Part shown: positions 412-43,776 of the stretch, in pieces
Numbering within the stretch: position 1 is the stretch's first letter
Layout: every line of letters starts with the position of its first letter
NCBI GenBank assembly: GCA_964446775.1
Contig: CAYURA010000002.1
Coordinates: forward strand, 1-47,313
Length of the DNA stretch: 47,313 nt
Source of the DNA: an uncultured Gammaproteobacteria bacterium
GTDB taxonomy: Bacteria > Patescibacteriota > Patescibacteriia > Patescibacteriales > UBA12465
Reading direction: 5' to 3'
Position numbers and translations under genes: made by a program
Notes under the pieces: generated by a model
The model's input: only the letters and a program-made list of their open reading frames with translations
Told to the model about the DNA's origin: nothing
Database searches by the model: none

Positions 412-1902
412 ATGCAAATAATAATTGATACTAGTAGATTAGATAGATTTTTTAATCTCCCGCCTGACCAAATGTTGTGGGAATTTTTCATTAATATTGG
501 CTGGATTTTTATCGCCGTCCTTTTCCTTTATGCAGTTTTAATTATGTATCTCCAGAGTATTCGTGCTTATTGGGCAGCTAATAATTTAAAATTTATCCTA
601 TTAGCCCTTGACATACCCAAGGGTAATGAACAATCACCGAAAGCAGTAGAGAACATGTTTACCTATTTAGCTGGAGCTCATAGTACCCCTAATTTTTTTG
701 AAAAATGGTTTGATGGTAAATTTCAGGTTTCTTTTAGTTATGAAATCGTTAGTTTAGAAGGTTATACGCAATTTTTAATTAGAACCCCAATTGAGTTCCG
801 AGACTTAATTGAAACTTCAATATACTCTCAATATCCTGATGCAGAAATTGCTGAGGTAGATGATTATATAGATACTGTACCGCATAGATTTCCTGATGAG
901 GATTATGATGTTTGGGGGACTGAATTTGTTCAAGCAAACCACTGGGCTTTTCCGATTAAACTATACCCTGAGTTTGAGTATAAATCTGGTCCCCTGGAGA
1001 CACAATTTAAAGATCCAATGGCCTCATTGATGGATCTCTGTAGCTCTTTAAGAGAGGGTGAAAATTTATGGTTTCAGATGGTTGTCATTCCTATTGGTTT
1101 TAAATGGACTGAAGAAAGTGATGCTCAAGTAGAAAAAATAATTGGTAGAAAAAAAACCAATAAAGGCCTAGATACGAAAATAATTGAGTGGATCGGTGAT
1201 GCTAGTGAATTTATTTATAGTATTTGGGGAGATATTGAGAATAAGGAAAAAGAAGATCGGCCAAAGCTAGTTATGGAGCTAGATCCAAAACAGCAAGCAC
1301 AAATTGAAGCAATTGAACTTAAATCTTCAAAAGTTTCTTTCGCTATGAAAACAAGGATGGTTTATGTTGCGAGAAAGGATCTAATGTCACGTTCTAAAGT
1401 GGTTAATGGAGTAATTGGCTATACCAAGCAGTTTGCATCCCTCCACTTAAATAATTTAATGCCAGATATAAAGTATACCATGACTAAAACATCCTATTTC
1501 AATAAGAAAAAAAGATTGATTAGGAAGAAAAATGCTATTATGAATAATTACATCACCCGTGATGATTTTAATGGGCGTACTCCAGGCATATATAATATTG
1601 AGGAGCTAGCAACTTTATGGCACTTTCCTATTGAGGCAAATGTTAAATCACCAATGATTCAGAAAGCCCCAGGTAGGAAAGCAGACGCACCTTCTTCTTT
1701 GCCAGTTTTAAGTGATATTGCTGGTAGTTCAAGTCAGTTTTTTGAAGATGATATTTTAGCAGCTGATATTAATAAACAAGTTGCTAGCAAGAAAGATGAG
1801 AATAAAGAAGTAAAAGAAACTAATCATACATTAGAATTTGATAAGTCAGATTATAAATCAAATGGAAAAGACCAAGTTCCAGATAATTTACCATTTATAT
1901 AA
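412..1902 (+). CDS. membrane-anchored protein, ATPase-less paralog of the N-terminal module of the 35254..37785 TraD/VirD4-like ATPase
   Basis: 496-aa ORF with one N-terminal TM helix (WIFIAVLFLYAVLIMYL). Residues ~60-430 are collinear with residues ~55-400 of the 843-aa ORF (VSFSYEIV..YPDAEIAEVDDY vs FSFEIV..YPEAVIEEIEDY; EELATLWHFP vs EELTSIFHLP). No P-loop is present. Its stop overlaps the next ATG (TAATG). Confidence 0.6.
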   Translation: MQIIIDTSRLDRFFNLPPDQMLWEFFINIGWIFIAVLFLYAVLIMYLQSIRAYWAANNLKFILLALDIPKGNEQSPKAVENMFTYLAGAHSTPNFFEKWFDGKFQVSFSYEIVSLEGYTQFLIRTPIEFRDLIETSIYSQYPDAEIAEVDDYIDTVPHRFPDEDYDVWGTEFVQANHWAFPIKLYPEFEYKSGPLETQFKDPMASLMDLCSSLREGENLWFQMVVIPIGFKWTEESDAQVEKIIGRKKTNKGLDTKIIEWIGDASEFIYSIWGDIENKEKEDRPKLVMELDPKQQAQIEAIELKSSKVSFAMKTRMVYVARKDLMSRSKVVNGVIGYTKQFASLHLNNLMPDIKYTMTKTSYFNKKKRLIRKKNAIMNNYITRDDFNGRTPGIYNIEELATLWHFPIEANVKSPMIQKAPGRKADAPSSLPVLSDIAGSSSQFFEDDILAADINKQVASKKDENKEVKETNHTLEFDKSDYKSNGKDQVPDNLPFI

Positions 1903-3107
1903 TGAAAACTCCAGTTCAAAATTTAACAAAAAAAACTTTGCGTATTGGCATTGATGCTCGTTTTTATGGCCCCTTAGGTAAGGGATTGGGTCGTTATGTG
2001 CAGGAGTTAGTTGATAATCTGATTAAGATAAATGATGAAAGGGCTGGCGAATTTGAATATGTCATATTCTTAAGTAAAGCTAATTTTGATGAATTTCAAT
2101 CTTCTTCCTTATTTATCAAAAAAAAACTGGTTAATTTAAAATGGTATTCTTGGGAAGAACAATTTTTTTTCCCGAAGATTATTAAACAAGAAATGATAGA
2201 TTTGATGCATTTTCCTCATTTTAATGTGCCGATTTTTAGTCAGATTCCATTTGTAGTAACTATTCATGATTTAATTCTAACCCGTTTTCCTAGCCGACGC
2301 GCTTCTATATTACCTGCTGCTTTATATTGGTTTAAACAGCTTGCATATCGTCTAATTATTAAAACAGCCTTACTAAGAGCAAAGAAGATTATTACTGTTT
2401 CAAATTTTACAAAAGAAGACATTGTTAAACAATTTAAGATTAAACCAAAAAAAATATTAGTAACGTATGAGGGCGTTTCTAAGTTAGAGAAAATAACAAC
2501 GTCTAATAAAAAAGTTAATAATTCAATTGTACTTTGGCAGAAATATAAAGTTAAAAAACCTTTTATATTGTATGTTGGCAATGCATATCCCCATAAAAAC
2601 TTAGAATCATTACTTTTCGTTACTCGGAAATTAATTAATGAACATCCAGATTTAAAAATTGTTATGGTTGGCAAGGAAGATTATTTCTATCGAAGACTTA
2701 AAGATAGGTCAAGAGAAATTAAAGCTAGCTTAACTGACAATAATAATTTACATATTTTTCCTGGATTCGTTCCTGATGAGGATTTAGCAATTTTTTATCA
2801 GAATGCTCTCTTCTATATTTTTCCTTCTTTGTATGAAGGGTTCGGTTTGCCGCCTTTAGAAGCAATGTCTTTTTCTTGCCCAGTTCTTTCGTCTGATCAA
2901 GCTAGTTTGCCAGAGATTATTGGTGAGGCAGCTTTATTCTTTAATCCTTATGATGAATCAGACTTAGAAAGTAAAATAAAATTAATGATTAATGATGATA
3001 AATTAAGATATGATTTATCCGTTCTTGGTCAGGAGAGGGTTAAACTTTTTAATTGGTTAGATTGTGCTGAGAATACCAGGGAAGTATATCAAAATATTTT
3101 ATTATAG
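1902..3107 (+). CDS. glycosyltransferase, GT-B fold family 4 (GT4/GT1-type)
   Basis: 401 aa. The C-terminal EGFGLPPLEAM motif, the preceding PSLYEGFG and the N-terminal RIGIDARF are typical of retaining GT4 enzymes. Translationally coupled to the upstream ORF. Confidence 0.85.
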   Translation: MKTPVQNLTKKTLRIGIDARFYGPLGKGLGRYVQELVDNLIKINDERAGEFEYVIFLSKANFDEFQSSSLFIKKKLVNLKWYSWEEQFFFPKIIKQEMIDLMHFPHFNVPIFSQIPFVVTIHDLILTRFPSRRASILPAALYWFKQLAYRLIIKTALLRAKKIITVSNFTKEDIVKQFKIKPKKILVTYEGVSKLEKITTSNKKVNNSIVLWQKYKVKKPFILYVGNAYPHKNLESLLFVTRKLINEHPDLKIVMVGKEDYFYRRLKDRSREIKASLTDNNNLHIFPGFVPDEDLAIFYQNALFYIFPSLYEGFGLPPLEAMSFSCPVLSSDQASLPEIIGEAALFFNPYDESDLESKIKLMINDDKLRYDLSVLGQERVKLFNWLDCAENTREVYQNILL

Positions 3108-3114
3108 AATTCCT

Positions 3115-5607: not shown

Positions 5608-5639
5608 CTTGATAGTTTATATAATTAAGTATTTTTTAT

Positions 5640-13892: not shown

Positions 13893-14756
13893 CTACTTTT
13901 GAAGTTCAGCAATCACCTGTTGTAGGTGCTGCAGAACTTTTTTGTGTGGAGCCTTGATTATTGTTTCGAATTTTTTAGCTTTTGGAAGTCTAAAAAATTG
14001 ACATACTTCTAATTTTTTATTTGACAATAGCCAAGTGAAATCTTCTCCTCCATCTTTATATTGGATAACAGTTAAGTATGGAGATTTCTCTAAGAAGGCT
14101 TCGCGCAGTCTTGAGAAATCAAGATATTCTGAAATGTTATCCAAGTACGTAAATCCAATTTTGCGCCCTGGAATACGTATCAAAAAATTAATTTTTAAAG
14201 ATTTTATGGCTTTGTTTGTTATTTTTTGCGCTCGGTGATAGAGCTCATAAAAACTTTCGACTAAGGGGCTGCTCCCCTCACTAGCTATTTCAGTGATTAC
14301 TTCTTCATAAATAGCTTCATAAATAGCTAAATTTGAATTTAAGCCTTTTATCATCGCTGTTTTTAAAGCTTTCACATATCTGGAGACTTCCAGATTAGTT
14401 TGCCAATTATCAGAGGCCATATCACCATCTTTTTTTCTCATTGACTTAGTGTAGATCTTTGTCATGAGTTCGTCTATATCAGTATTATCTTTTTCCCAAT
14501 TATCAAAAGGAAAAAAGATGATATGAGAAATAAGATTAATCTTTTCACTAAGATAGATTTCAATATCAGGATGATATTGGATTGATGAGGTGATTGATTT
14601 AGGATCTATGTTACAAAGAATTATTTCTTTTGCACCACTAGCCCAAAGTGCACTCGGAGTGGTGGCTGAGACTAGAATATAGCCAGCATTTTTGGCTGCG
14701 GCTAAGAAGAAGATTGAAGAAACATTATAAGGGTTATATATTATTATTTTTTTCAT
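13893..14756 (-). CDS. hypothetical protein, no family recognised
   Basis: 287-aa ORF, monocistronic on the minus strand, with its own terminator. A TTGACA-17-CAATAT promoter candidate lies upstream. Confidence 0.55.
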   Translation of the reverse strand: MKKIIIYNPYNVSSIFFLAAAKNAGYILVSATTPSALWASGAKEIILCNIDPKSITSSIQYHPDIEIYLSEKINLISHIIFFPFDNWEKDNTDIDELMTKIYTKSMRKKDGDMASDNWQTNLEVSRYVKALKTAMIKGLNSNLAIYEAIYEEVITEIASEGSSPLVESFYELYHRAQKITNKAIKSLKINFLIRIPGRKIGFTYLDNISEYLDFSRLREAFLEKSPYLTVIQYKDGGEDFTWLLSNKKLEVCQFFRLPKAKKFETIIKAPHKKVLQHLQQVIAELQK

Positions 14757-19902: not shown

Positions 19903-20691
19903 ATGCAAGATAGTAATCAGTTAGCTAATAAAGAAGAGAGCAGGGAGAAGCTCATTTCATTTTTTTCGTTGCTTAAGAGTACCTGGCAGTTTTATCATCA
20001 TCGATTTCTTGACTTTACTGAAATGTACATCTGGGGCTTATTTGGAGCTATCCCCTTGCTAATCATTGGTTTAATTATTCTTGGATTCTCTTTTTTAGGC
20101 TTGGATTCAGCATTGTTGAGATTTATTTTTGTCATTCTAATAATCTTAGCCTTACTTTATTTTCTTTATTATAGTATAAGAGCTCATATTGGTATCATTT
20201 TATTGATAAAAAATGAAAAGGCCAAAGTAAAACCAATTTTTATAGAAACAAAAAAATTCTTTAGATCATATCTCAATACTAGTGTTAATGTCGGAATTTA
20301 TATATTTTTTCTAACTATCTTATTTATAATTCCAGGAATTATCTTTTATATTTATTGGATTTTTACTACCCTATTAGTTGTTTTAGAAGAAATAAAAAAA
20401 CCGATGGAAGCCATAAAAAGAAGCAAAAACTTAGTTAAGGGCTATTGGTGGGCAGTGGCTGGTCGTCTGATTCTTATATTTTTTATTTACTTAATAGTGT
20501 TGAGTATTATTATGTTACCTGCTGCTATTAATATTGATCCTGTAACTAAAATCGAGACATTTAAGTACTTAAGTCAAGATCTTGGTCAAGTTTATCAAAT
20601 CTTAGCAAATCTTATCGGGGCTCTTTTAAGTCCTATATTAGTTGTCTTTAGCTATTTCTTATACAAAGACATATTAGCTAAGAAAAAATAA
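19903..20691 (+). CDS. polytopic membrane protein, family not recognised
   Basis: 262 aa with about six hydrophobic helices and no catalytic motif seen. Confidence 0.5.
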   Translation: MQDSNQLANKEESREKLISFFSLLKSTWQFYHHRFLDFTEMYIWGLFGAIPLLIIGLIILGFSFLGLDSALLRFIFVILIILALLYFLYYSIRAHIGIILLIKNEKAKVKPIFIETKKFFRSYLNTSVNVGIYIFFLTILFIIPGIIFYIYWIFTTLLVVLEEIKKPMEAIKRSKNLVKGYWWAVAGRLILIFFIYLIVLSIIMLPAAINIDPVTKIETFKYLSQDLGQVYQILANLIGALLSPILVVFSYFLYKDILAKKK

Positions 20692-25823: not shown

Positions 25824-27548
25824 ATGGTTAGTCCTAATTTAGTTGAAAAAAAAATAGAGAGTGGTACAGAGGAGTTAAATGTCAATGCTAAAAAGCTATT
25901 TCAAGCTGTTTATAATGATATTCATGCTGCGGATGATAAGAATGACGGTTCGCCACATATACGCGTATCAGAACTTATTTCCAAGATGGCTTTTTTCTAT
26001 GAGAAAATTCGTAATGCTGTTGATTATGATGAAGATCATCTTCTGCGAAAAAATGCTATCGCGAGAATATTAAAAAGACAAGTTCGTATTGAGGGTTTGT
26101 TGAAGGTCTCAAGTAATGAAGAATTAGCTCAACATCTTTTAGCGGAATTAATTCGTGCTGGTTATTTACAAAATAATCATTTACCTGAAAGTAAGATTAA
26201 AGAGGTGGCTAATATTTTGGATAAATATCTAAAACTGAAGGATATGGTGGTAAAGCATGAAGAAAATAACGCTAAGGCTAAAAGGATTAATAAAAAATCA
26301 AAAGAATTGTTGAAGGATAAGACTAGTTTAATCGTTTTTTTACTTAATATTGCTGCCTGTGAAATTGAAGAAGGTTTAGTGCAAAGTCGAACTAAACGAG
26401 CCATGGTAAATGTTATGTTTGATGCTATCAATAGAATAATCGAGCTACCTGATGATCTCCCTTATTCTTCTGATTTACAAATACAAATTTATTTAAGCAT
26501 TGGTCGTAATTATTCTCGTTTTGATGAAGATATGTTAGCTTTCGTCCTATTTAAATATTACAATACGGGTTGGACTGGCGATCATATTGATTTAATGTTT
26601 AGTCCAGCCGACGAGCAAATTAAGCAGATGGCTTTTTCTATTCATGATTTACGCCAAGCAATTGAATATCAGTTAAATCATCCTTTAAAAAAACAGCTTG
26701 ATAAAATTGTGCGTCGTTATGCTCTTTATTTTACCGTTCTACAAGATGCTATAATTAAAGATCCGGCTAAGGTTTACAATGAATTTAAATATAATCCTAA
26801 AACTTTTTATACTGCAATTCGTAAAGTATGTAATTTAAAATATAAGAAAGCTAAATCTCGTTTGTGGCGGGCAGCACTTAGAAGTATTATTTACATTTTT
26901 TTAACAAAATCTATTTTTGTCTTGTTAATAGAGATTCCTGCTATTCATTTATTCCATCAACCTCTTAATTATATTTCGTTAATTATTAATATTTCTTTTC
27001 CAGCTGTTTTACTTTTTTTTATAGTGTTATTAACTAGAGTTCCTGGAGATAATAATACTGAGAAGATAATTGAAGGGGTAAGCGAAATTGCTATTTTAGG
27101 AAAAGAAAGAAATAGACCGATTAAATTAAGGAATCCTCAAAAAAGAGGATATGTTCTGAATGCAATTTTTAATTTAATTTATTTTAGTACTTTTTTGATA
27201 TCACTTTATGCTATTGTTTGGCTGTTGATTAAAGTTAATTTTAATTGGGTTAGCATCATTATTTTCCTTTTTTTCTTAGCTTTTGTGAGCTTCTTTAGTA
27301 TTATAGTAACTCGCGGAGTTAAAGAGCTAATAGTTCTAGAAAAGAAGGAAAACCTATTCAGTTTTTTAATGGATTTATTTTATATGCCTATAATTATTGC
27401 GGGGAAGTGGTTGTCTAATAACATATCCAAGATTAATGTTTTTATTTTCGTATTCGATTTCATTATCGAAGCTCCGTTTAAAATATTAGTTGATGTAGCT
27501 GAGGATTGGACTAAATATCTTAAAGAACGTAAAGATAACATGGTTTAA
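25824..27548 (+). CDS. large membrane protein, family not recognised
   Basis: 574 aa with a ~340-aa soluble helical N-terminal region followed by about five TM helices. Confidence 0.5.
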   Translation: MVSPNLVEKKIESGTEELNVNAKKLFQAVYNDIHAADDKNDGSPHIRVSELISKMAFFYEKIRNAVDYDEDHLLRKNAIARILKRQVRIEGLLKVSSNEELAQHLLAELIRAGYLQNNHLPESKIKEVANILDKYLKLKDMVVKHEENNAKAKRINKKSKELLKDKTSLIVFLLNIAACEIEEGLVQSRTKRAMVNVMFDAINRIIELPDDLPYSSDLQIQIYLSIGRNYSRFDEDMLAFVLFKYYNTGWTGDHIDLMFSPADEQIKQMAFSIHDLRQAIEYQLNHPLKKQLDKIVRRYALYFTVLQDAIIKDPAKVYNEFKYNPKTFYTAIRKVCNLKYKKAKSRLWRAALRSIIYIFLTKSIFVLLIEIPAIHLFHQPLNYISLIINISFPAVLLFFIVLLTRVPGDNNTEKIIEGVSEIAILGKERNRPIKLRNPQKRGYVLNAIFNLIYFSTFLISLYAIVWLLIKVNFNWVSIIIFLFFLAFVSFFSIIVTRGVKELIVLEKKENLFSFLMDLFYMPIIIAGKWLSNNISKINVFIFVFDFIIEAPFKILVDVAEDWTKYLKERKDNMV

Positions 27549-33851: not shown

Positions 33852-34124
33852 TTAACAAACGCTAACGATTTTAGAGTCTTTAAGCTTACCAGTAAACTTT
33901 TTTAATTTTTTACTAGTAAATTTCACTAAACCATCAGATACAGCAAAAAGGGTATCGTCGTTACCGCGTTTTACATTTTTTCCTGGATGATATTTGGTTC
34001 CACGCTGGCGGATAATAATATTACCAGCCTTAGCTTTTTGGCCATCAGATAACTTGACGCCTAAACGTTTGCTCTCTGAATCGCGACCCAAGGCAGTTGA
34101 ACTGCCAGCTTTCTTATGTGCCAT
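33852..34124 (-). CDS. rpmA: 50S ribosomal protein L27
   Basis: [24 protein letters not shown] signature. The ATG at 34124 is preferred over the track start at 34172. Confidence 0.95.
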
Positions 34125-34221
34125 AAAGATAATATTGGTTATATTTTTTTCAAAATGAAAATAATTAACCATTTTTCATTAAATAATGTATTAAGTTAAG
34201 ATATATTAAGTTAACGATGTC

Positions 34222-34250
34222 AATATAACAAAATGGGCGTTACTTGTCAA
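34222..34250 (-). promoter_or_regulatory. candidate rpmA promoter (TTGACA-17-TATATT)
   Basis: On the minus strand, TTGACA (34250-34245), an exact 17-nt spacer and TATATT (34227-34222), about 95 nt upstream of the rpmA ATG. Confidence 0.5.
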
Positions 34251-34271
34251 TTGATAAGAGATGATTGTAAA

Positions 34272-34343
34272 GGCAATTTAGAAATGTCATAGTGGTGGGC
34301 AATTTAGAAATGTCATACCTTCGTTTTCAATAGAAATGTCATA
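34272..34343. repeat. three tandem direct repeats with 26-bp period (core TAGAAATGTCATA)
   Basis: GGCAATTTAGAAATGTCATA at 34272-34291 and at 34298-34317 are identical. A third core copy, TAGAAATGTCATAC, starts at 34331. The cores start at 34279, 34305 and 34331. Confidence 0.85.
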
Positions 34344-34506
34344 CTTGAGAAAATATGTTAATTATTTAAACTTTAATTCATTGGCTAAGTCTTGTTAATA
34401 TCTATTATAGGGTATGATGTTTCAATGAATGCTTAAATATGCTTCACATATCTACTTATAATCACTTGGATATAAGCGTTCTGAGACTATTATTTTTTAG
34501 AAACTA

Positions 34507-34515
34507 TGCTATACT
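34507..34515 (+). promoter_or_regulatory. candidate extended -10 promoter (TGcTATACT) for the ferredoxin-led operon
   Basis: TG at 34507-34508 and TATACT at 34510-34515, about 75 nt upstream of the ATG at 34590. Confidence 0.4.
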
Positions 34516-34589
34516 TTATAAAGTAATAGTTAAAAGTAATAGCTAAGAGTAAATATAAAGAAGTCTAGCTACTTTATTGTTTTTTATAT

Positions 34590-34760
34590 ATGATTAAGAT
34601 TAAAAATGAAGAGTGCATAGGTTGCGGTTTATGTGTCAGTCTTTGCCCAGATGTTTTTGTTTTAGGTAAGGACTATAAGGCAGTGGTGGTTAATGATATT
34701 AACAAAGATTGTGCTAAAAAAGCAGCTTTGAATTGCCCTGTTAACGCTATAATTATCTAA
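34590..34760 (+). CDS. fdx: small 4Fe-4S ferredoxin (56 aa), absent from the ORF track
   Basis: My own translation is MIKIKNEECIGCGLCVSLCPDVFVLGKDYKAVVVNDINKDCAKKAALNCPVNAIII. The CxxCxxC...CP plus distal C...CP pattern is that of monocluster ferredoxins. The stop is 4 nt before the next ATG. Confidence 0.8.
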   Translation: MIKIKNEECIGCGLCVSLCPDVFVLGKDYKAVVVNDINKDCAKKAALNCPVNAIII

Positions 34761-34764
34761 AAAT

Positions 34765-35247
34765 ATGGCCAATAATTTAAACAAGATTGAGGAAATTCCA
34801 TCACCTCACGTAGCAGAAATACCTCGAGAAGGCTCAGAAACAAATGTAGAAAGAGTCGGAGAAATACTGCCAGAGATAAAAAAAAATAATGATAAAGGCG
34901 TTCGACCACCTACTGCAAAGAAGCCTGTCCCATCGCCACTGAAGGTAGAAGACCAAAATAACTATGAGGGTAAGAAGATCAAAGCTATTGAAAATATCAT
35001 GTCGAGTGGCTTAGATAAAATTTTCTTAGAAATGAGTCCTAGAGAGCGTAAGCGTTTTAAAGACGAAGGAGAAAAAACAGCTCTAAAAATTAGCGAATTA
35101 TTATCAAAAGTTCGACTTAGTGCTGATAAAATTGTTAAATTAATTAAAGACTGGCTAAAATTAATCCCTGGTGTGAATCGTTTCTTTCTTGAGCAAGAAG
35201 CAAAAATTAAGACAGATAAAATAATAAATATCAAGAAAAGCCTTTAA
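34765..35247 (+). CDS. hypothetical protein, no family recognised
   Basis: 160 aa with a Pro/Lys-rich N-terminal half and a helical C-terminal half. Tightly packed between the ferredoxin and the ATPase. Confidence 0.5.
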   Translation: MANNLNKIEEIPSPHVAEIPREGSETNVERVGEILPEIKKNNDKGVRPPTAKKPVPSPLKVEDQNNYEGKKIKAIENIMSSGLDKIFLEMSPRERKRFKDEGEKTALKISELLSKVRLSADKIVKLIKDWLKLIPGVNRFFLEQEAKIKTDKIINIKKSL

Positions 35248-35253
35248 AATCAT

Positions 35254-37785
35254 ATGTTCGAATTTTCATCTAGCGCTTTCCAAGGTCCATCAGATCAATT
35301 AATTAGCTCATTAATTATAGTGCTAATAATTTTAGGTATTTTAATAGTACTAACCTTAATTATTCGTTTGCTTGTGAGGCAAGCAATGGTCAACAATAGT
35401 TATTTTGATCATCAAGTATTTTTAATTAAATTGCCTAAGGAAAAGCCAGAGGATGAAAAAAATAATAGTGATTCATTACAACAAATAAGAGAAGAAATTG
35501 CAAAAGGAGAAACCATTTTTGCTAGTATTGGGGGTTTAAAGGCACAAAGAGGTATTTCTGCTTGGTTTTTAGGGAGAAATGACCATTTTTCTTTTGAAAT
35601 TGTAGCTTATAATAATAAAATTGCTTTTTATGTAGTATCACCACGTGCTATGTCACGCTATTTAGACCAACAGATAACGGCCTATTATCCAGAAGCTGTG
35701 ATTGAAGAAATCGAAGATTATAATATTTTCAATGCCTATAGCAATATTATGAGTGCTTCATTAAAAACAAAAAAAAATTATATTTTACCCTTGCGCACCT
35801 ACCAAAAGATTGAAGTAGATCCTCTTAACTCTTTAATTAATGTCATGTCTAAATTAGATAAAGATGAAAGTATGGCAGTCCAATATATTGTTCGTAGCGC
35901 TAAAGGTTCTTGGCATGGTGAAGTGAGAAAAGCTGTCCGTAGAATTCAAGCAAAAAATTCAGTTAGTGCCGGAATTCATGTTAATAAATTTTCTGAAATA
36001 ATGTCTCATTTAACTGAGATATTTTCTGTTGCAAGTAGTAAACCAAAGGACCCTAATAGTCAGGATGCCCAGAAAAGATTATCAGCCGTGGAAGAAGAAA
36101 CTTTAAAGTCGATTGAAGAGAAAAATTTAAGAGCTGGACTTGATGTTAATATTCGCATAATTGTTGCTACCGCCAGTAAAGAGCGCTCAGTGACTTATTT
36201 AGAGAATGTGGCCAGTACTTTTACTGAATACAATAATTATAGTTATGGCAATAACTTTTCTCGAGCGATAAAGTCTAATCAAGAAAAATTAATTAAAGAT
36301 TTTATATATCGTCGTTTTCGTGAAGAAATGTCGTTTTTATTAAATACTGAAGAGCTCACTAGTATTTTCCATCTGCCACTAAGACATATGGAAACTCCTA
36401 ATATTTTATGGTTAACAGCTAAGAGTGCCCCAGCTCCAGCAGATCTCCCAAGTGAGGGCTTGCTACTTGGAAATAATTTCTATCGCGGAGTTAACAAAGA
36501 GATAAGGATAAAGGGCCAAGATAGAAGGAGGCATACCTATATTGTTGGTAAATCTGGTGTTGGTAAATCCGTGCTATTAACCAATATGGCGGTCCAAGAT
36601 ATTCAAAATGGTGAAGGTGTTTGTGTTCTTGATCCACATGGTGATTTAATAGAAGATATTCTACAGAGAATACCTCCAGAGAGAGCTGAAGATGTGGTAA
36701 TTTTTTCACCTGCAGACACTGAAAGGCCATTAGCTTTAAATCTACTAGAGTATGATCCTCGTTATCCTGAACAAAAAAGTTTTGTGATTAATGAAATGAT
36801 CGGAATTTTTGATAAATTATATGATTTAAAGCAGACTGGTGGCCCGATGTTTGAACAATACATGCGTAATGCTCTATTACTAATTATGGAAGACCCTGAG
36901 AGTGGATCTACTTTAATGGAAATTCCCAAAGTCCTTTCAGATGAAAATTTTAGAAGTTTGAAACTATCTCGTTGTAAGAATAGAACTGTTGTCGATTTTT
37001 GGAGGAAAGAGGCTGAAAAAGCAGGCGGTGATGCTGCATTAGCTAATATAGTCCCTTATATTACCTCTAAGTTAACTTCTTTTATTTCCAACGATATGAT
37101 GCGCCCGATTATTGGCCAGCAGAACAGTTCTTTTAATTTTAGAGATTTAATGGATCGCCAAAAAATATTATTAATTGATTTACCAAAAGGCGTTGTGGGT
37201 GAGATGAATGCCTATCTTTTAGGCATGATTGTTGTGGGTAAGATTTTAATGGCTGCCTTATCGAGAACAGATATACCAGGAGAAGATCGAAAAGATTTTT
37301 ATCTTTATATTGATGAATTTCAAAACTTTACCACCGATTCAATTTCACAAATTCTATCTGAGGCAAGAAAATATGCGCTTAATCTAATCATTGCGCATCA
37401 ATATGTTGGTCAATTGACTAAAAATAATAATACGGAAATAAAGGATGCGGTGTTTGGTAATGTGGGCACAATGATAAGTTTTAAAATAGGTACCGAAGAT
37501 GCTGAATTTTTAGTCAAAGAGTTTTCTCCAGTTTTTAACGCTTTTGATTTAATAAATATTGATAAAGGGACTGCTTATATCAAATTATTAGTTGATAATA
37601 GTGCAACTCGTCCTTTCTCTATGAGAACTGTTTGGCCTTTGATTGGCGTGGCTCGTCCTGAATTATCTAAAAAAATTAGGACTTTAAGCCGCTTAAAATT
37701 TGGTCAAGATCGATCAATAATTGAAGCAAATATTATTAGAAGGACTGAGAATATAGTCTTGCCTAAATCAACTTTAAAAGAATAA
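35254..37785 (+). CDS. membrane-anchored TraD/VirD4-like (type IV coupling protein family) P-loop ATPase with a novel N-terminal module
   Basis: TM helix at aa ~17-40. Walker A GKSGVGKS (aa 432-439, nt 36547-36570) is followed by VLDPHGDL. Walker B is YLYIDEFQNF (D687/E688). ARKYALNLIIAHQYVGQL resembles the TraG/TraD C-terminal motif. Confidence 0.75.
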   Translation: MFEFSSSAFQGPSDQLISSLIIVLIILGILIVLTLIIRLLVRQAMVNNSYFDHQVFLIKLPKEKPEDEKNNSDSLQQIREEIAKGETIFASIGGLKAQRGISAWFLGRNDHFSFEIVAYNNKIAFYVVSPRAMSRYLDQQITAYYPEAVIEEIEDYNIFNAYSNIMSASLKTKKNYILPLRTYQKIEVDPLNSLINVMSKLDKDESMAVQYIVRSAKGSWHGEVRKAVRRIQAKNSVSAGIHVNKFSEIMSHLTEIFSVASSKPKDPNSQDAQKRLSAVEEETLKSIEEKNLRAGLDVNIRIIVATASKERSVTYLENVASTFTEYNNYSYGNNFSRAIKSNQEKLIKDFIYRRFREEMSFLLNTEELTSIFHLPLRHMETPNILWLTAKSAPAPADLPSEGLLLGNNFYRGVNKEIRIKGQDRRRHTYIVGKSGVGKSVLLTNMAVQDIQNGEGVCVLDPHGDLIEDILQRIPPERAEDVVIFSPADTERPLALNLLEYDPRYPEQKSFVINEMIGIFDKLYDLKQTGGPMFEQYMRNALLLIMEDPESGSTLMEIPKVLSDENFRSLKLSRCKNRTVVDFWRKEAEKAGGDAALANIVPYITSKLTSFISNDMMRPIIGQQNSSFNFRDLMDRQKILLIDLPKGVVGEMNAYLLGMIVVGKILMAALSRTDIPGEDRKDFYLYIDEFQNFTTDSISQILSEARKYALNLIIAHQYVGQLTKNNNTEIKDAVFGNVGTMISFKIGTEDAEFLVKEFSPVFNAFDLINIDKGTAYIKLLVDNSATRPFSMRTVWPLIGVARPELSKKIRTLSRLKFGQDRSIIEANIIRRTENIVLPKSTLKE

Positions 37786-37795
37786 ATATTTAAAT

Positions 37796-39391
37796 ATGTC
37801 AGTTCTATATCGCAATTATCGGCCTCAAAAATTTAGTGATATTTTGGGTCAAAATCATCTTAAAATTAGTCTGCAGAATGAAATCGTTAGTAATTCCTTA
37901 GCTCATGCTTATCTTTTTTGTGGTCCGAGAGCGGTTGGTAAAACAAGTATGGCTAGAGTTCTGGCTCAAGCAGTTAATTGCGAAAAACGTAAAGAAAATC
38001 AATATGAACCCTGCGGAGAGTGTGGTGCGTGTTTAAGCATCAGACAGGGCCGAGCTCTAGATGTTATTGAAATTGATGCAGCCTCTAATACAGGCGTAGA
38101 CAATGTGAGAGATAATATTATTTCTTCTGTAAGAGTGACGCCGAGTTATTTAAAGATGAAAGTTTTTATCATCGATGAAGTACACATGTTGTCAACGCAA
38201 GCATTTAATGCACTTCTTAAGACTCTGGAGGAGCCACCGGCTCACATTATTTTTATTCTTTGCACAACTGAAGCACATAAGGTGCCATTAACTATTATCT
38301 CACGCTGTCAACGTTTCGATTTTAAGCGAATTAGCCAATCAGAAGTGATTAAGAAATTACAAAAAATTTCTTTACAAGAGAAAGTAGATGTAGACATTTC
38401 AGTTTTGGAGAGTATCGCTAAACAATCCGAAGGCCATTTAAGAGATGCTGAGAGCTTATTAGGCCAAGTTTTAGCTTTGGGTGAAAATAAAATAACTTCC
38501 GCAATGGCAGAATTAATCTTACCTAGACATAACCAGCATGAAGCTCTAGATTTGATTAATGCTTTATATCAACGTGATGCAGCTACAGCAATCTCAATTC
38601 TTAATAATTTAGCTGAAAATGGAATTAATTTTAAAAATTTTTTGGCAGATCTACTTTTGATTTTAAGAAAAATAATGCTGCAGAAATTACAACCAGGATT
38701 AGCTGTTAGCTTGGGTCTAGATCTTGGTGAGCAATTAGAATTAAAAATTTTAGAAATATCTCGGAATATAGAGATAGAGATGACTCTAAAAATTATACGA
38801 AGTTTTATTTCTCTATCTAAAGATAGTGCTAGTTCTTTTAATCAGCTAAGTTTCGAGCTTACTATCGCGGAACTTTGCTTACCAACAAAGACGGAGATGA
38901 TTTACCCTTCTGTAGTGAAAAGAGATGGCGAGCCTCATATTAATGAATCAAAAGTTGTGGAAATAAAAAAAGATTCAGCCAAGAGAGATGCTGAAAAATC
39001 TGTTAATTTAAGTGAGGCTGAAGTTCAAACTTTATGGCCCGAATTGTTGATTAAAATTAAAAAGTATAATCATTCTTTGTCATTCATAATGCAGAATTGT
39101 CAAGCATCAGCTATTAAAAATGGACTTATTACCCTAATATTTAAATACAAATTTCATCGAGACCGCGTGACGAGCAAAGACATAAAGCAGATTACTGAAG
39201 ATGCTTTAAAAGAAGTTTATGGTGGACAAATAGATATTGAAGCTGTCCTGGATGAGAAGTTAATTGTGCTTAATAACGAGTCAAAGCTAGATGATGAACA
39301 AGAAGAAAATATGACATCTAAAGAAGAAAAAATAAATAATTCAAGTTCATTAACTAATCTATTGGCAAATTTTGGTGGAGAAACATTATAA
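37796..39391 (+). CDS. dnaX: DNA polymerase III subunit gamma/tau
   Basis: YRPQKFSDILGQ, GPRAVGKTS (Walker A), Zn module CEKRK..CGECGAC, IIDEVHMLS and SRCQRFDF motifs. Confidence 0.9.
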   Translation: MSVLYRNYRPQKFSDILGQNHLKISLQNEIVSNSLAHAYLFCGPRAVGKTSMARVLAQAVNCEKRKENQYEPCGECGACLSIRQGRALDVIEIDAASNTGVDNVRDNIISSVRVTPSYLKMKVFIIDEVHMLSTQAFNALLKTLEEPPAHIIFILCTTEAHKVPLTIISRCQRFDFKRISQSEVIKKLQKISLQEKVDVDISVLESIAKQSEGHLRDAESLLGQVLALGENKITSAMAELILPRHNQHEALDLINALYQRDAATAISILNNLAENGINFKNFLADLLLILRKIMLQKLQPGLAVSLGLDLGEQLELKILEISRNIEIEMTLKIIRSFISLSKDSASSFNQLSFELTIAELCLPTKTEMIYPSVVKRDGEPHINESKVVEIKKDSAKRDAEKSVNLSEAEVQTLWPELLIKIKKYNHSLSFIMQNCQASAIKNGLITLIFKYKFHRDRVTSKDIKQITEDALKEVYGGQIDIEAVLDEKLIVLNNESKLDDEQEENMTSKEEKINNSSSLTNLLANFGGETL

Positions 39392-39401
39392 ACTTTATTT
39401 T

Positions 39402-40664
39402 ATGCTAGATGTAAAATTAATAAGAGAGAAGCGAGTCAAAGTAGAACAAGCTTTGTTTAAAAGAATGAAGCCTGGAAGTTTTGATTTAAATATTATTATT
39501 AAATTAGATGACAAGCGTAAAGAATTAATAAATAGAAGCGAGTCTTTGAAGGCTAAGCGAAGGCAAAATTCAAAAGTCAAGCCAAGCACTGAGATAATTT
39601 CTAGTTTAAAAAATATTGGTGATGAAATAAAAAAAATAGATACTCATTTAAGTCAAGTAGAGGATGATTTAAAAAAACATTTATCAGCTTTACCTAACCT
39701 ACCAGATGAAGATATTTTAGCGGGTGGAAAAGAGCATAACCAAGTAGTTTATACTTATGGAGAGCAGCCCAGATTTGATTTTAATTTTAAAGACCATATT
39801 TTCTTAGCAGAGGAACTAAACATGATTGACTATGATAGAGCGGTAAAAATTTCTGGTTCAGGTTTTTGGGCCTATCATAATTGGGGGGCTTTGTTAGAAT
39901 GGGCTTTATTATCTTATTTTATAGAGTATCATCAACAGAATGGATACACTTTTATTATCCCCCCTTTTCTATTAAATGAAGAATCTGCATACAGTACGGG
40001 TCAGTTACCTAAATTTGGTGATGATTTATTCTGGACGCAAGATAAATTATGTTTAAATGCTACCAGTGAGATGATGTTAGGCAATTATCATCGTGGTGAG
40101 ATATTGCCGGTTTCACAATTGCCCTTAAAGTATTTTGCCTACTCACCTTGTTTTAGGAGAGAGGCTGGTAGTTATCGTCAGTCGGAAAGAGGAATGGTCC
40201 GCGGTCATCAGTTTAATAAAGTGGAGATGTTTGTTTTATGTAAATCAGAAGATTCATCAATTATTTTTGATGAACTACTAGAACACGCACAGGCATTATT
40301 GAGCGGATTAAACCTACATTATCAAGTATCTAAATTAGCCGCCGGAGATTGTTCTGCAGCTATGTCCCGAACTTATGATTTAGAGGTTTGGTTGCCGAGT
40401 ATGAATATCTACAAAGAGGTTAGCAGTGTCTCTAAGTCTTTAGACTATCAGGCCCGCCGTGGCCAAATTAGATATAAAAACGAACAAGGTGATAATGTGT
40501 TTGTTCACACTTTAAATGGCTCAGGATTAGCCACAAGTAGGTTATTACCTGCGATTTTAGAACAAAATCAGCGGGCTGACCATTCAGTGCAGATACCAAG
40601 CATATTGAGAAAGTATCTACCAGGCAATCCAAAATATTTTTATCCAGATCAAAATAAATTCTAA
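39402..40664 (+). CDS. serS: serine--tRNA ligase
   Basis: MLDVKLIRE N-terminus with a coiled-coil arm, and class II motifs FRREAGS and NGSGLATSR. The ATG at 39402 is preferred over the overlapping track start. Confidence 0.9.
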   Translation: MLDVKLIREKRVKVEQALFKRMKPGSFDLNIIIKLDDKRKELINRSESLKAKRRQNSKVKPSTEIISSLKNIGDEIKKIDTHLSQVEDDLKKHLSALPNLPDEDILAGGKEHNQVVYTYGEQPRFDFNFKDHIFLAEELNMIDYDRAVKISGSGFWAYHNWGALLEWALLSYFIEYHQQNGYTFIIPPFLLNEESAYSTGQLPKFGDDLFWTQDKLCLNATSEMMLGNYHRGEILPVSQLPLKYFAYSPCFRREAGSYRQSERGMVRGHQFNKVEMFVLCKSEDSSIIFDELLEHAQALLSGLNLHYQVSKLAAGDCSAAMSRTYDLEVWLPSMNIYKEVSSVSKSLDYQARRGQIRYKNEQGDNVFVHTLNGSGLATSRLLPAILEQNQRADHSVQIPSILRKYLPGNPKYFYPDQNKF

Positions 40665-42687: not shown

Positions 42688-43776
42688 ATGATTATGAATA
42701 ATAAACTTTTTAAATTTTGGAAGCGTAGGCGTGATCGATTCTATCGTCGGCATAAATGGCAAATAGTCCTGGATTTTTCTTTGATTATCATAATTATTAT
42801 TTTAATAGCAATTTTTATTAGGCTAGTATCATTCAAACCTATTTTAAACAATTTCGTGAAATGGCCGACTTTAAGCTCGACCACACTAGCAATTGATGAT
42901 CAAATATTATCCTTTGATATTATTGTTAGTTTGGATGAAAAGACGATAGCTGTTAATGAAAATATTTCTTGGAAGATTCAATTTAAAAATAACGGTGAAA
43001 AAAATATTAATCAAGCTTATTTAGACTTTATTTTTCCAGATCATACATTTTTAATTGATGAGCTTAGTTCTGATAATAAAGATTTATTAATAAAAAATAA
43101 TCAAATAATAATTAACAATGTTCAGGCTGGCAAGACAATAGATTTCAATGTAGAATTAAAATGGCATAAGAATCAGATTCATGCATCACGATCAATAAAA
43201 AGTAATTTAAAAGCTAGTGTAATTAGTGACGACGGTCATAAACTAGAAAAAATGCTAGTCCTAGAGGAAGTCAAGATTATTGCAGATTTAAAGTTAAAAG
43301 CTGAGCTTTTCTATCATAGTCTTCAAGGCGATCAGCTAGGGATTGGCCCGATTCCACCAGAGGTGGGTATAGCTACTAAATATTGGTTGATTATAAAAGT
43401 TGATAATTTAGATAATCAAATTAACAATTTTATTTTCTCAACTCAATTAGCTGAAAATGTTGAGTTAAGTGATGATTATAGCCTGTTAGCAGGTAAATTT
43501 TCTTATGATAAGGATCGTCGTCTATTAATTTGGAAAATTGATCAGCTTGGATTTGAGGAAAATGATTATGTAGCTAATTTTGCGTTATATTTAACACCGA
43601 CAAAAAATCAGTTAGGAAAAAATGTTGAAATATTAAAGAATATAAATTATTATGCTGATGACCCGTGGTCAGGTACCACTATCAGTGCTCATTTAAATAA
43701 CTTAGATAGCTCATTGCCTGCTGATAAGATTAATAAAGGGCAGGGAATAGTGATCAGCAATGAAAATGCTTACTAA
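42688..43776 (+). CDS. membrane-anchored surface protein, paralog of the 5640..7703 C-terminal region
   Basis: Basic N-terminus and one TM (IVLDFSLIIIIIILIAIFIRLV), followed by an Ig-like segment. GIGPIPPEVGIATKYW matches GSGPLPPKVGEKTSMRV, and LIWKIDQLG matches ITWRLGYLP. Confidence 0.55.
   Translation: MIMNNKLFKFWKRRRDRFYRRHKWQIVLDFSLIIIIIILIAIFIRLVSFKPILNNFVKWPTLSSTTLAIDDQILSFDIIVSLDEKTIAVNENISWKIQFKNNGEKNINQAYLDFIFPDHTFLIDELSSDNKDLLIKNNQIIINNVQAGKTIDFNVELKWHKNQIHASRSIKSNLKASVISDDGHKLEKMLVLEEVKIIADLKLKAELFYHSLQGDQLGIGPIPPEVGIATKYWLIIKVDNLDNQINNFIFSTQLAENVELSDDYSLLAGKFSYDKDRRLLIWKIDQLGFEENDYVANFALYLTPTKNQLGKNVEILKNINYYADDPWSGTTISAHLNNLDSSLPADKINKGQGIVISNENAY

Follow-up and report, generated by a model that had tools for sequence, protein, structure and literature searches.

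A conserved chromosomal ATPase of the VirD4/TraD coupling protein type with a predicted VirB4-like N-terminal domain in a patescibacterium

Coupling proteins are membrane-anchored motors that pass DNA or proteins to bacterial conjugation machines. Canonical type IV coupling proteins (T4CPs) of the VirD4/TraD family, including TrwB of plasmid R388, have a short N-terminus with two transmembrane (TM) helices and are linked to relaxase or Dtr genes. VirB4 proteins of type IV secretion systems (T4SSs), such as TrwK of R388, carry N-terminal domains (NTDs) that link protomers and touch VirB3 and VirB8 (PMC12857230). Both kinds of ATPase occur in Patescibacteria. The survey by Quinonero-Coronel et al. 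(2025; PMC12102498) reports VirB4 in 2,417 of 3,035 genomes (80%) and T4CP homologs in 2,918 (96%); these homologs are chromosomal, VirD4-type and almost never close to virB4 (148 of 5,713 T4CP genes). Most surveyed genomes lack a relaxase, and its authors suggest exaptation. In S. epibionticum the T4CP homolog is dispensable while the T4SS is essential, according to the same survey; Wang et al. found no recognisable coupling protein in the T4SS of this species (PMC10633639).

The DNA analysed here (the window) is a stretch of 47,313 nucleotides from a Falkowbacteria-like (ABY1) patescibacterium. It encodes an 843-aa ATPase in a string of four genes, preceded by a ferredoxin gene and p160, a 160-aa ORF, and followed by dnaX (Table 1). 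The ORFs and motifs are as described in an initial annotation of this sequence, as are the gaps of 4, 6 and 10 nt between successive genes of the string. No intrinsic-terminator-like site was found between any of the four genes in a scan of the locus. The 417-nt gap between rpmA and the ferredoxin gene contains several promoter-like sites and three direct repeats of AGAAATGTCATA; it is likely to be the promoter region driving the string.

Table 1. Position of the coupling-type ATPase, its domains and its neighbours in the window
Feature	Coordinates	Strand	Basis or remark
Stand-alone paralog, 496 aa, one TM + DUF8128, no ATPase	412..1902	+	BLASTP, PF26449
rpmA	33852..34172	-	divergent, upstream of ferredoxin
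Divergent intergenic region rpmA/ferredoxin, 417 nt	34173..34589	.	likely promoter region
Ferredoxin, 56 aa	34590..34760	+	ORF list; single-cluster 4Fe-4S
p160, 160 aa	34765..35247	+	ORF list
Coupling ATPase, 843 aa, whole gene	35254..37785	+	ORF list, Pfam
Single N-terminal TM helix, about aa 11-47	35284..35394	+	AlphaFold models, Kyte-Doolittle
DUF8128 domain, aa ~50-400, predicted VirB4-NTD-like fold	35401..36453	+	precomputed Pfam PF26449; model
T4CP-type P-loop ATPase domain with helical insertion, aa ~415-795	36496..37638	+	Pfam, PDB profile, Foldseek
Walker A GKSGVGKS, aa 432-439	36547..36570	+	read from sequence; invariant in 48 orthologs
Walker B YLYIDEFQNF, aa 683-692	37300..37329	+	read from sequence; D687, E688 invariant
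dnaX, DNA polymerase III tau/gamma, 531 aa	37796..39391	+	ORF list; Pfam labels of orthologous gene
serS	39372..40664	+	ORF list

As initially proposed, the 843-aa protein has a coupling ATPase of the TraD/VirD4/TrwB type as its C-terminal half. Walker A is followed by VLDPHGDL, and ARKYALNLIIAHQY lies at aa 704-717. The catalytic positions G432, K433, S434, G435, G437, K438, S439, D687, E688, R705, H715 and Q716 are all invariant in 48 orthologs. Four T4CP/HerA Pfam families exceed their gathering cut-offs; TrwB_AAD_bind scores 34 bits, T4SS-DNA_transf 28.9 and TraG-D_C 26.4, and PF10412, PF02534 and PF12696 are among the families that pass. The NCBIfam TraD and CD1115 models match only partially, and the NCBIfam equivalog scores 50 bits, far below its cut-off of 366. 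In a profile search of PDB sequences, TrwB is the best match, followed by DotL; no other ATPase relatives were recovered. The AlphaFold full-length model resembles TrwB in Foldseek (E 2e-9, TMt 0.54). It places helices at aa 506-634 between Walker A and Walker B, where TrwB and the VirD4/TraD family also have a helical insertion; parts of the all-alpha region have low model confidence. By homology to TrwB, the protein is presumably a hexamer. In contrast to the canonical family, it has one TM helix and a VirB4-NTD-like domain of about 350 aa ahead of the ATPase, and its gene is not linked to a relaxase or Dtr gene.

Both AlphaFold models contain a long helix at residues 12-48, and about aa 11-47 is the only strongly hydrophobic stretch in a Kyte-Doolittle scan. 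Since the ATPase is cytoplasmic and there is a single TM helix, DUF8128 should lie in the cytoplasm as well. The initial annotation treated the N-terminal module as unknown, apart from its resemblance to the 496-aa ORF; the resemblance is borne out (BLASTP, 21% identity to aa 9-399, E 3e-16), while the module itself belongs to Pfam PF26449/DUF8128 according to precomputed labels on homologs. It is catalogued rather than characterised. The N-domain model is confident (pLDDT 88.9, pTM 0.85). In the PDB, R388 TrwK/VirB4 accounts for each of its top 11 Foldseek matches (E 2.6e-6 to 3e-4); unrelated structures follow. For the full-length model TrwK/VirB4 ranks first, then TrwB, with ~930 columns aligned to full-length TrwK (E 1.9e-13). 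TM-scores to VirB4 are low (0.28-0.40 overall; 0.36-0.40 for the NTD likeness), and profiles compared with a Bacillus VirB4 align at the P-loop alone. The likeness of DUF8128 to the VirB4 NTD is thus one of modelled structure only: the N-terminal fold and two-domain plan appear common to VirB4 (PDB 7o42, 7o43, 8rtd) and the 843-aa protein, while the sequence signature of the VirB4 ATPase domain is absent from the latter.

Homologs are found on 320 plasmids. Collinear full-length homologs are coupling proteins in conjugation operons of Bacillus, Shouchella, Embleya and haloarchaeal plasmids; DUF8128 occurs fused or split in T4CPs of conjugative plasmids from Bacillota, Actinomycetota and haloarchaea, and also in Bacillus phages. 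The plasmid proteins are labelled 'DUF87 domain-containing' or 'TraM recognition domain-containing'; examples are Shouchella clausii NZ_CP012476 WP_248290882, B. subtilis NZ_CP154917 WP_345805471 and Embleya NZ_CP108778 WP_331738717. They are 812-885 aa long and collinear with the 843-aa ATPase over their full length, with 24-28% identity over aa ~104-795 (tblastn, E 2e-43 to 2e-60) and 27-74 bits to an N-domain HMM. An HMM built from the N-domain alone matches the N-regions of plasmid and phage T4CPs at 27-86 bits. Their genes lie within T4SS operons with VirB4 (AAA_10), PrgI/VirB3, a cell-wall hydrolase and, immediately 3', a relaxase-like gene (Replic_Relax, PF13814). The order on the Shouchella and B. 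subtilis plasmids is homolog, Replic_Relax, conjugal transfer proteins and AAA_10 VirB4; on the Embleya plasmid it is PrgI, VirB4-like ATPase, homolog, Replic_Relax and NlpC/P60. On Natrinema pNVE500, a split gene pair adjoins a pilin and a conjugal transfer protein. Unlike these plasmid genes, the patescibacterial gene has dnaX downstream, lacks T4SS neighbours and is far more conserved; p160 is absent from the plasmid elements.

The phage relatives form PHROG phrog_5156, which includes Gp156 of Bacillus phage G, proteins of phages JL, SBSphiC, Goe26 and PBC5, gp23 of D6E and gp50 of 035JT001. The phrog_5156 profile matches the 843-aa ATPase over its full length (7.9e-89, aa 108-840); identity is 20-24% (tblastn). 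Gp156 is also the top BFVD match of the N-domain fold (E 9e-19, TMq 0.55). The phage genes lie in early or lysogeny regions, have no assigned function and come without a p160 homolog, and no T4SS genes were found in the two phage flanks examined. Because DUF8128 is also present in plasmid coupling proteins and Bacillus phages, the combination of TM helix, DUF8128 and T4CP ATPase is an inherited architecture and not a novel fusion.

In this patescibacterium, the ATPase gene has joined the vertically inherited core of the chromosome, and purifying selection on it is very strong. There are more than 2,900 homologs, the best 120 of which are full length with at least 69% identity; orthologs occur in at least 567 GTDB species, with identities of 53-87%. 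The 20-kb synteny around the gene is conserved among species, with core genes in the flanks. In a common set of 26 species, the ATPase has a median identity of 70%, compared with 50% for DnaX, 62.5% for SerS, 72.7% for PyrG and 72% for L27; conservation of the ATPase equals the level of CTP synthase. The traits specific to Patescibacteria are this conservation, the syntenic housekeeping context on the chromosome without a relaxase, and p160.

p160 consists of a disordered, variable N-terminal region of ~70 aa and a conserved C-terminal region of ~90 aa with the motif WLxxIPGVNxFFLEQEAKIKxDKI. It has no match in Pfam, NCBIfam, PHROG, PADLOC or PDB, and none of its 727 homologs has a Pfam family or name. 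The initial annotation proposed a three-gene unit; across 80 species loci this holds for p160 and fails for the ferredoxin. p160 lies directly upstream of the ATPase in 73 loci (tblastn), usually 1-15 nt away or overlapping (about 70 species). The gap is -8 to +37 nt in all but two of the 71 loci where both ORFs can be delimited; the exceptions are a 183-nt gap and an in-frame fusion to the ATPase. On these sequence grounds, p160 appears to be a Patescibacteria-specific partner of the ATPase. The ferredoxin (Fer4_13, 7e-14 in Pfam) is upstream in 51 loci and is missing from lineages with ATPase identity of about 62% or less, where p160 stays; it is probably a clade-restricted neighbour and not a functional part. 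dnaX is downstream in 64 of the 80 loci, mostly immediately or after about 0.7-1.5 kb, and inserted genes break the adjacency in several lineages. Ferredoxin and dnaX would be operon neighbours of the ATPase rather than components.

The stand-alone DUF8128 paralog is a candidate partner subunit of the ATPase. It belongs to PF26449, has 2,500 homologs, and is flanked by sigma factor and glycosyltransferase/DUF4012 genes. Stand-alone and fused DUF8128 genes also adjoin in phage G, where Gp155, an N-domain protein, lies next to Gp156, mirroring the paralog and the ATPase; pNVE500 has its split pair. A comparable arrangement is seen with TrsD of pGO1, which stands alone and is related to the N-terminus of VirB4 (PMC12102498): a separate VirB4-NTD-like protein goes with a T4SS ATPase, as the paralog may do here. 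According to that source, most TrsD homologs of Patescibacteria adjoin virB4, and one in Table S3 carries PF11130; the paralog differs from them in its DUF8128 domain and its surroundings.

VirB4, VirB6, relaxase and pilin families have no match among those ORFs of the window that reach 100 aa, checked by Pfam scan or by precomputed Pfam labels on syntenic orthologs. All ORFs so checked are housekeeping or unknown, in agreement with the initial reading that the window holds no other conjugation gene. No T4SS genes are linked to the ATPase in the window or in the 80 related loci. The ATPase is thus an orphan locally; for the genome as a whole the term probably does not hold, given how widespread VirB4 is in the survey. 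Table S3 of the survey lists VirB4, VirB3 and VirB2 genes in a Falkowbacteria genome, well away from its t4cp1 match, and two 'VirB4' matches in a Magasanikbacteria genome; the 't4cp1' entries of both are probably orthologs of the 843-aa ATPase. By analogy, a T4SS is probably encoded elsewhere in this patescibacterium. The available part of the survey gives no account of the DUF8128/VirB4-like N-domain, the paralog or p160, nor of how conserved the gene is or of its relatives in plasmids and phages.

The reading we favour, as reasonably probable, is that the 843-aa protein is a domesticated, membrane-anchored T4CP of a subclass with a TM helix and a VirB4-NTD-like DUF8128 domain ahead of the T4CP nucleotide-binding and all-alpha domains, coupled to the patescibacterial T4SS and/or the paralog. 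The ATPase would form a ring on the cytoplasmic side of the membrane, docked to membrane partners through its N-domain by NTD-NTD or VirB3/VirB8-type contacts, most likely with the VirB4 complex of a T4SS encoded elsewhere and/or with the DUF8128 paralog. Energy from ATP hydrolysis would serve to deliver a conserved substrate, either protein or nucleic acid, and the co-translated p160 might serve as adaptor, regulator or cargo. The missing relaxase and the vertical, core-gene-like inheritance of the gene make a non-classical role plausible, as initially suggested. Two points from the surveyed literature count against T4SS coupling: T4CP homologs are commoner than VirB4 (PMC12102498), and the S. 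epibionticum data (PMC12102498; PMC10633639) argue against obligatory coupling if the Saccharibacteria gene is assumed to be an ortholog. Bacillus phages share the architecture, and the two phage flanks examined hold no T4SS genes, so it may work without a T4SS. ATPase, p160 and paralog could form a machine of their own, independent of the VirB4 T4SS, moving for example DNA, nucleotides or proteins across the single membrane, much as the initial annotation envisaged; we consider this distinctly less probable, though a serious alternative. Its appeal lies in the unlinked gene, the wider spread of T4CP homologs and the exaptation raised by the survey authors, housekeeping-level conservation, the lineage-specific p160 and the phage G pair. 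Yet the ATPase gene has no linked channel-forming component, subunits with one TM helix each would hardly make a translocation pore, the closest non-phage homologs lie inside T4SS operons, and ABY1 genomes encode T4SS parts elsewhere (PMC12102498).

The Foldseek ranking of full-length TrwK/VirB4, first for the N-domain and whole models, raises the question of a second VirB4-like ATPase that assembles a machine or pilus and is not a substrate receptor. Length (about 840 aa) and domain order (membrane-associated NTD, RecA-like C-terminal domain) fit VirB4, and the paired 'VirB4' matches in Magasanikbacteria agree with it. This is nevertheless improbable: VirB4 sequence models reach the P-loop only (TIGR00929, 21 bits against a cut-off of 643), a Pfam scan of the protein gives no AAA_10 or CagE_TrbE_VirB match, TrwB and DotL turn up in the PDB sequence profile search whereas VirB4 does not, and the plasmid homolog coexists with a separate AAA_10 VirB4 and adjoins a relaxase-like gene, which is the T4CP position. 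An FtsK-like housekeeping DNA pump for chromosome segregation or replication-linked DNA handling would suit the relation of T4CPs to FtsK and HerA, the conservation level, the frequent dnaX neighbour and the XerC/D-type recombinase and ftsQ genes about 7-9 kb downstream. It is less probable still, as the 843-aa protein has no FtsK_SpoIIIE Pfam match and no gamma domain, HerA signals are marginal, NurA is absent and dnaX adjacency is lost in several lineages. FtsK is reportedly discussed in two transcriptome studies of TM7x, a Saccharibacteria strain, which was also counted against this pump. Homologs of this kind are typical of plasmids and phages, and the gene might be a functionless remnant of an integrated conjugative element or prophage; this is effectively refuted by conservation and synteny. 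Flanking core-gene synteny is identical across species, the catalytic motifs are invariant in the 48 orthologs, identity is 53-87% across at least 567 species, no integrase, relaxase or repeat boundary is adjacent, and the window shows no island signature in GC content or GC skew.

On the favoured T4CP reading, an ultra-small bacterium has a conjugation-type motor firmly established on its chromosome, a variant of a known family and not a new machine.

The C-terminal half of the ATPase is related to type IV coupling proteins (T4CPs). Four Pfam families match aa ~415-765 above their gathering cut-offs: TrwB_AAD_bind (PF10412, 34 bits), T4SS-DNA_transf (PF02534, 28.9), TraG-D_C (PF12696, 26.4) and, just above the cut-off, DUF87 (25.6). 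NCBIfam adds partial TraD and CD1115 VirD4-like matches far below the equivalog cut-offs; none of its TraD, TraG or CD1115 models reaches equivalog level, the best being SXT_TraD (50 bits; cut-off 366). TrwB is the best match among PDB sequences, followed by DotL, with both the single sequence and a 48-sequence profile; VirB4 is found by neither search. These Pfam, NCBIfam and PDB matches show that the initial annotation, which had placed this half with TraD/VirD4 and expected T4CP families, is correct. Its motifs are also present as described (Walker A GKSGVGKS, aa 432-439; Walker B YLYIDEFQNF, aa 683-692; the ARKYALNLIIAHQY segment), with catalytic positions invariant in 48 orthologs.

Between the two Walker motifs the predicted model has helices at aa 506-634, part of this region having pLDDT <50; the model matches TrwB in Foldseek (E 2e-9, TMt 0.54). 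This suggests, with moderate confidence, that a TrwB-like all-alpha domain is inserted here. The membrane anchor differs from that of canonical T4CPs. In these, two TM helices lie directly before the NBD; in contrast, the ATPase has one predicted TM helix, with a 350-aa extra domain between it and the NBD.

The extra domain had been described as matching nothing recognisable; it is already catalogued as PF26449 (DUF8128), a label that comes solely from precomputed annotations and is carried by the ATPase itself, all listed orthologs and the stand-alone paralog. The Pfam copy scanned locally was without that model, and local Pfam and NCBIfam scans of the N-terminal half, p160 and the paralog gave no match. 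The reported resemblance to the paralog was confirmed (21% identity over aa 9-399, E 3e-16). A profile search puts the DUF8128 family at 3,829 clusters at 50% identity, most of them stand-alone proteins of 420-600 aa; no paper found by literature search names 'DUF8128'.

An AlphaFold2 model of aa 1-410, built from an alignment of 108 orthologs and paralogs (pLDDT 88.9, pTM 0.85), consists of a single long helix at the N-terminus and, after it, an alpha/beta domain. All 11 significant Foldseek matches of this model in the PDB are to TrwK/VirB4 of plasmid R388 (E 2.6e-6 to 3e-4, probability ~1, TMq 0.36-0.40); only unrelated folds follow (E > 7e-3). The full-length model (pLDDT 74.6) aligns with full-length TrwK over ~930 columns (E 1.9e-13), ahead of TrwB and then HerA. 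The low global TM-scores are explained by the different orientation of the two domains. When the DUF8128 alignment was compared with a Bacillus plasmid VirB4 by hhalign, the P-loop alone was aligned; the link to the VirB4 N-terminal domain (NTD) therefore rests on predicted structure and is not demonstrable by sequence. At that level, the N-domain is predicted to have a VirB4-type NTD fold. VirB4 NTDs join the protomers within each dimer and contact VirB3 and VirB8 (PMC12857230). Since there is a single predicted TM helix and the ATPase is necessarily cytoplasmic, the DUF8128 domain is probably cytoplasmic and close to the membrane.

The window belongs to contig SACD01000002.1 (assembly GCA_009928735.1). 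The ATPase lies in a compact gene string downstream of a divergent rpmA. ORF positions are exactly as first annotated. Gaps of 4, 6 and 10 nt separate ferredoxin, p160, the ATPase and dnaX; there is no terminator-like site between these genes, and no GC or skew anomaly in the ATPase region.

Coordinates of the ATPase gene string and of other features in the window
Feature	Position	Strand	Remarks
Paralog cluster	412-7703		
Stand-alone DUF8128 paralog	412-1902	+	496 aa
ORF without Pfam family	13893-14756	-	
ORF without Pfam family	19903-20691		
ORF without Pfam family	25824-27548		
rpmA promoter, sigma70-like	34250..34222	-	11/12 matches, with TG
AGAAATGTCATA direct repeats	34272-34344		three copies
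ferredoxin	34590-34760	+	56 aa
p160	34765-35247	+	160 aa, no family
ATPase	35254-37785	+	843 aa
dnaX	37796-39391	+	
serS	39372-40664	+	
ORF without Pfam family	42688-43776		

Window ORFs of >=100 aa, surveyed by Pfam scan and by the precomputed Pfam labels of syntenic orthologs, are all housekeeping or unknown. Within this survey there is no match to VirB4, VirB6, relaxase or pilin families, which bears out the earlier remark that the window holds no other conjugation gene. Relaxase and mating-pair-formation genes are absent from the 47-kb window and from the flanks of 80 orthologous loci, and VirB3, VirB6 and VirB8 genes are not found in the window or related loci. Pfam assigns no family to four ORFs of 262-574 aa; synteny of the 574-aa ORF is conserved in three related loci (L001-L003). 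The rpmA-ferredoxin intergenic region contains three direct copies of approximately AGAAATGTCATA, two of which are part of 20-nt repeats (ggcaatttagaaatgtcata). They adjoin the strong rpmA promoter and may serve a regulator of the divergent promoters as operators.

At least 567 GTDB species representatives have an ortholog of the ATPase. A comparison of all genes was feasible for 26 species; against the window proteins the median identities there are 70% (ATPase), 50% (DnaX), 62.5% (SerS), 72.7% (PyrG) and 72% (L27). The ATPase is thus under housekeeping-level constraint, which extends into the all-alpha domain. Neighbours were surveyed by tblastn on 80 of the ortholog loci. In 73 of them p160 gives a match just ahead of the ATPase gene, also in Magasanikbacteria, where ATPase identity is 53-55%; dnaX is downstream in 64. 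Ferredoxin occurs in 51, all in the closer clade; the co-occurrence that was to be checked for three genes holds for p160 and not for ferredoxin.

More distant lineages have a ~190-aa family without Pfam match between the ATPase and dnaX (motif VIEGVFDGExMIGxDGKxYxVPxNYASKSKLVEGD). It is found just downstream of the ATPase in loci L058, L060, L064, L067, L068, L070-L072, L074, L077 and L083, and just upstream of dnaX in L057 and L061. It was rejected as a system component: the window lacks it, Pfam gives no match for it, and in L057 and L061, whose ATPase and dnaX genes have become separated, it accompanies dnaX. The clearly patescibacterial syntenic block is also carried by many MAG contigs (L012, L014-L017, L051, L055, L057 and others) whose record titles say 'uncultured Gammaproteobacteria', 'Bacillota', 'Planctomycetota', 'Saccharimonadales' or 'Nanoarchaeia', which points to wrong taxonomy or mis-binning in public records.

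The linkage of p160 to the ATPase is close: the gap is -8 to +37 nt in all but two of the 71 loci with both ORFs delimited. None of its 727 homologs has a Pfam family or a name. The N-terminal ~70 aa are variable and Pro/Glu/Ala-rich; the C-terminal ~90 aa are conserved and Lys-rich (WLxxIPGVNxFFLEQEAKIKxDKI). There is no TM segment, PHROGs and PADLOC return nothing, and the p160 profile against PDB sequences gives only a low-complexity match to SNF11 (E 0.17). L070, the locus of a single GTDB species, has p160 joined in frame to the ATPase in a 1010-aa ORF (3694-6726). This fusion, which may reflect stop-codon loss or a sequencing error, puts p160 N-terminal to the TM helix and is topologically awkward.

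Although the ATPase had been presented as fused to an unknown membrane module, its architecture is not new; collinear homologs occur on plasmids and in phages. The full-length PHROGs family phrog_5156 matches aa 108-840 (E 7.9e-89; profile positions 75-817 of 824). By tblastn, a homolog is present on 320 plasmids, including those of Bacillus (98), Streptomyces (71), Staphylococcus (33), Clostridium (18), Sulfolobus (11) and several haloarchaeal genera, with single HSPs spanning aa ~86-830. An HMM of the N-domain only scores 86, 74, 46, 27 and 27 bits on the N-regions of relatives. On plasmids of Shouchella clausii and B. subtilis the gene directly after the homolog encodes a Replic_Relax protein; genes for 'conjugal transfer' proteins and a VirB4 of AAA_10 type come next. 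An Embleya plasmid carries, in this order, genes for a PrgI family protein, a VirB4-like ATPase, the homolog, Replic_Relax and NlpC/P60; Natrinema pNVE500 encodes the N-domain and the ATPase in two adjoining genes beside a pilin and a conjugal transfer protein.

Phage homologs were found by tblastn in Bacillus, Geobacillus and Brevibacillus phages (e.g. G gp156, JL, SBSphiC, Goe26, PBC5, D6E gp23, 035JT001 gp50). The N-domain model matches phage G Gp156 (E 9e-19, TMq 0.55) and also the neighbouring stand-alone Gp155. In phage G (JN638751, 90955-93072 and adjacent gene) the fused protein thus lies beside a stand-alone N-domain protein. The two phage contexts examined, D6E (L088) and 035JT001 (L089), are early or lysogeny regions; several phage homologs carry the erroneous annotation 'lipid A export ATP-binding/permease MsbA'.

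The plasmid and phage homologs, with their contexts, show that one class of conjugative systems, found in monoderm bacteria and in archaea, has a VirB4-like NTD joined to a T4CP ATPase as its coupling protein. This fits the derivation of the patescibacterial type IV secretion system (T4SS) from the MPF-FATA class, as concluded by Quinonero-Coronel et al. 2025 (PMC12102498). The ATPase shares collinear homology with the plasmid T4CPs over both domains; they are found in a conjugation operon with Replic_Relax and VirB4, whereas the ATPase has p160 upstream and dnaX downstream. No p160 homolog is present in the plasmid and phage loci. MOB-suite types 254 of the 320 plasmids as 'non-mobilizable', among them NZ_CP012476, NZ_CP108778 and NZ_CP154917 (L090, L091, L093), whose conjugation operon of Gram-positive type looks complete (T4CP homolog, Replic_Relax, VirB4/AAA_10, conjugal transfer proteins). 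Standard typing seems to overlook the Replic_Relax relaxase-like family; as a by-product, Replic_Relax conjugation operons of Bacillus, Actinomycetota and haloarchaea emerge as an entire class that this tool types 'non-mobilizable'.

The stand-alone paralog belongs to a conserved cluster, also seen in L004, L094 and L095, in the order sigma factor (a sigma-70/HARE-HTH protein), DUF8128, GT4 glycosyltransferase, DUF4012 (830-847 aa) and DUF11/CLIPPER (660-690 aa). The cluster comes after a set of genes for the cell wall (PBP, Mur ligase, dTDP-sugar genes), which hints at a link between the VirB4-NTD-like paralog and envelope or glycan machinery.

Quinonero-Coronel et al. (PMC12102498) report VirB4 in 2,417 of 3,035 Patescibacteria genomes and 5,713 VirD4-type T4CP homologs in 2,918; only 148 of these genes are near virB4, and relaxases are nearly absent. 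Table S3 lists VirB4, VirB3, several VirB2 genes and a t4cp1 match away from virB4 in one Falkowbacteria genome, and T4CP exaptation is proposed as a possibility. The Saccharibacteria T4SS is essential and has no recognisable coupling protein or relaxase (Wang et al. 2023, PMC10633639). The one genetically tractable patescibacterial species needs its T4SS, for which neither a coupling protein nor a substrate or function is known (PMC10633639, PMC12102498). The gene family itself is on record, with ordinary conjugative coupling proteins as its closest relatives; the literature searched contains no description of the domesticated state, extreme conservation, p160 partner or VirB4-like docking domain.

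Family membership, predicted fold, contexts of the homologs, p160 linkage and conservation are together best read as a chromosomally fixed, relaxase-less, NTD-bearing T4CP, which is the probable identity of the ATPase. It would act on its putative substrate as a membrane-anchored hexamer; the VirB4-like NTD would dock it to the T4SS inner-membrane complex and/or the stand-alone paralog, and p160 may be an adaptor, a regulator or cargo. The existence of phage homologs, and the wider distribution of T4CPs than of VirB4, would also suit an autonomous translocase independent of any T4SS; this is possible but somewhat unlikely, as no channel component is linked to the gene.

Despite the predicted fold of its N-domain, the ATPase is very unlikely to be a VirB4-like assembly ATPase: on its C-terminal half the VirB4 model TIGR00929 reaches only 21 bits (cut-off 643), at the P-loop alone, and AAA_10 and PF03135 (CagE_TrbE_VirB) give no Pfam match. 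FtsK is reportedly discussed in two transcriptome studies of Saccharibacteria TM7x. An FtsK-like housekeeping pump is highly improbable here, since FtsK_SpoIIIE (PF01580) is absent from the Pfam matches even at E <= 1 and the combination of motor domain and gamma KOPS/Xer domain is not seen. HerA signals are limited to DUF87 and HerA_C (E 0.086); NurA has no match among Pfam-scanned window ORFs and the genes flanking the ATPase are p160 and dnaX, so the pairing of HerA domains with an adjacent NurA nuclease is not observed. PADLOC matches the ATPase domain to mad8 (3e-15), a component of a methylation-associated defence system, and weakly to HerA. These matches were dismissed as generic T4CP/HerA-type ATPase similarity, given a housekeeping, syntenic context without defence genes. 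Synteny, composition and conservation leave a mobile-element remnant barely credible.

Overall, the initial observations of ORFs, motifs and gaps stand, and its interpretation holds for the coupling ATPase but not for a novel N-module. A near-universal but unplaced patescibacterial T4CP homolog is now assigned to a defined architectural subclass with clear conjugative relatives. The linked p160 and the stand-alone N-domain paralog are candidate partners, and the three proteins are concrete targets for experiment. The predicted fold suggests NTD-mediated insertion beside VirB4 as a possible docking mode.

Patescibacteria depend on host cells. A bolder and unlikely reading is that the DUF8128-T4CP, p160 and the paralog make up a core machine specific to Patescibacteria and derived from conjugation, and that this machine has lost plasmid transfer and handles a conserved cellular cargo at the host interface (e.g. 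host-derived DNA, nucleotides or protein), through the essential pilus-bearing T4SS or by a route of its own. If this were true, the epibiotic lifestyle would have the ATPase, which is as conserved as CTP synthase, as one of its central components.
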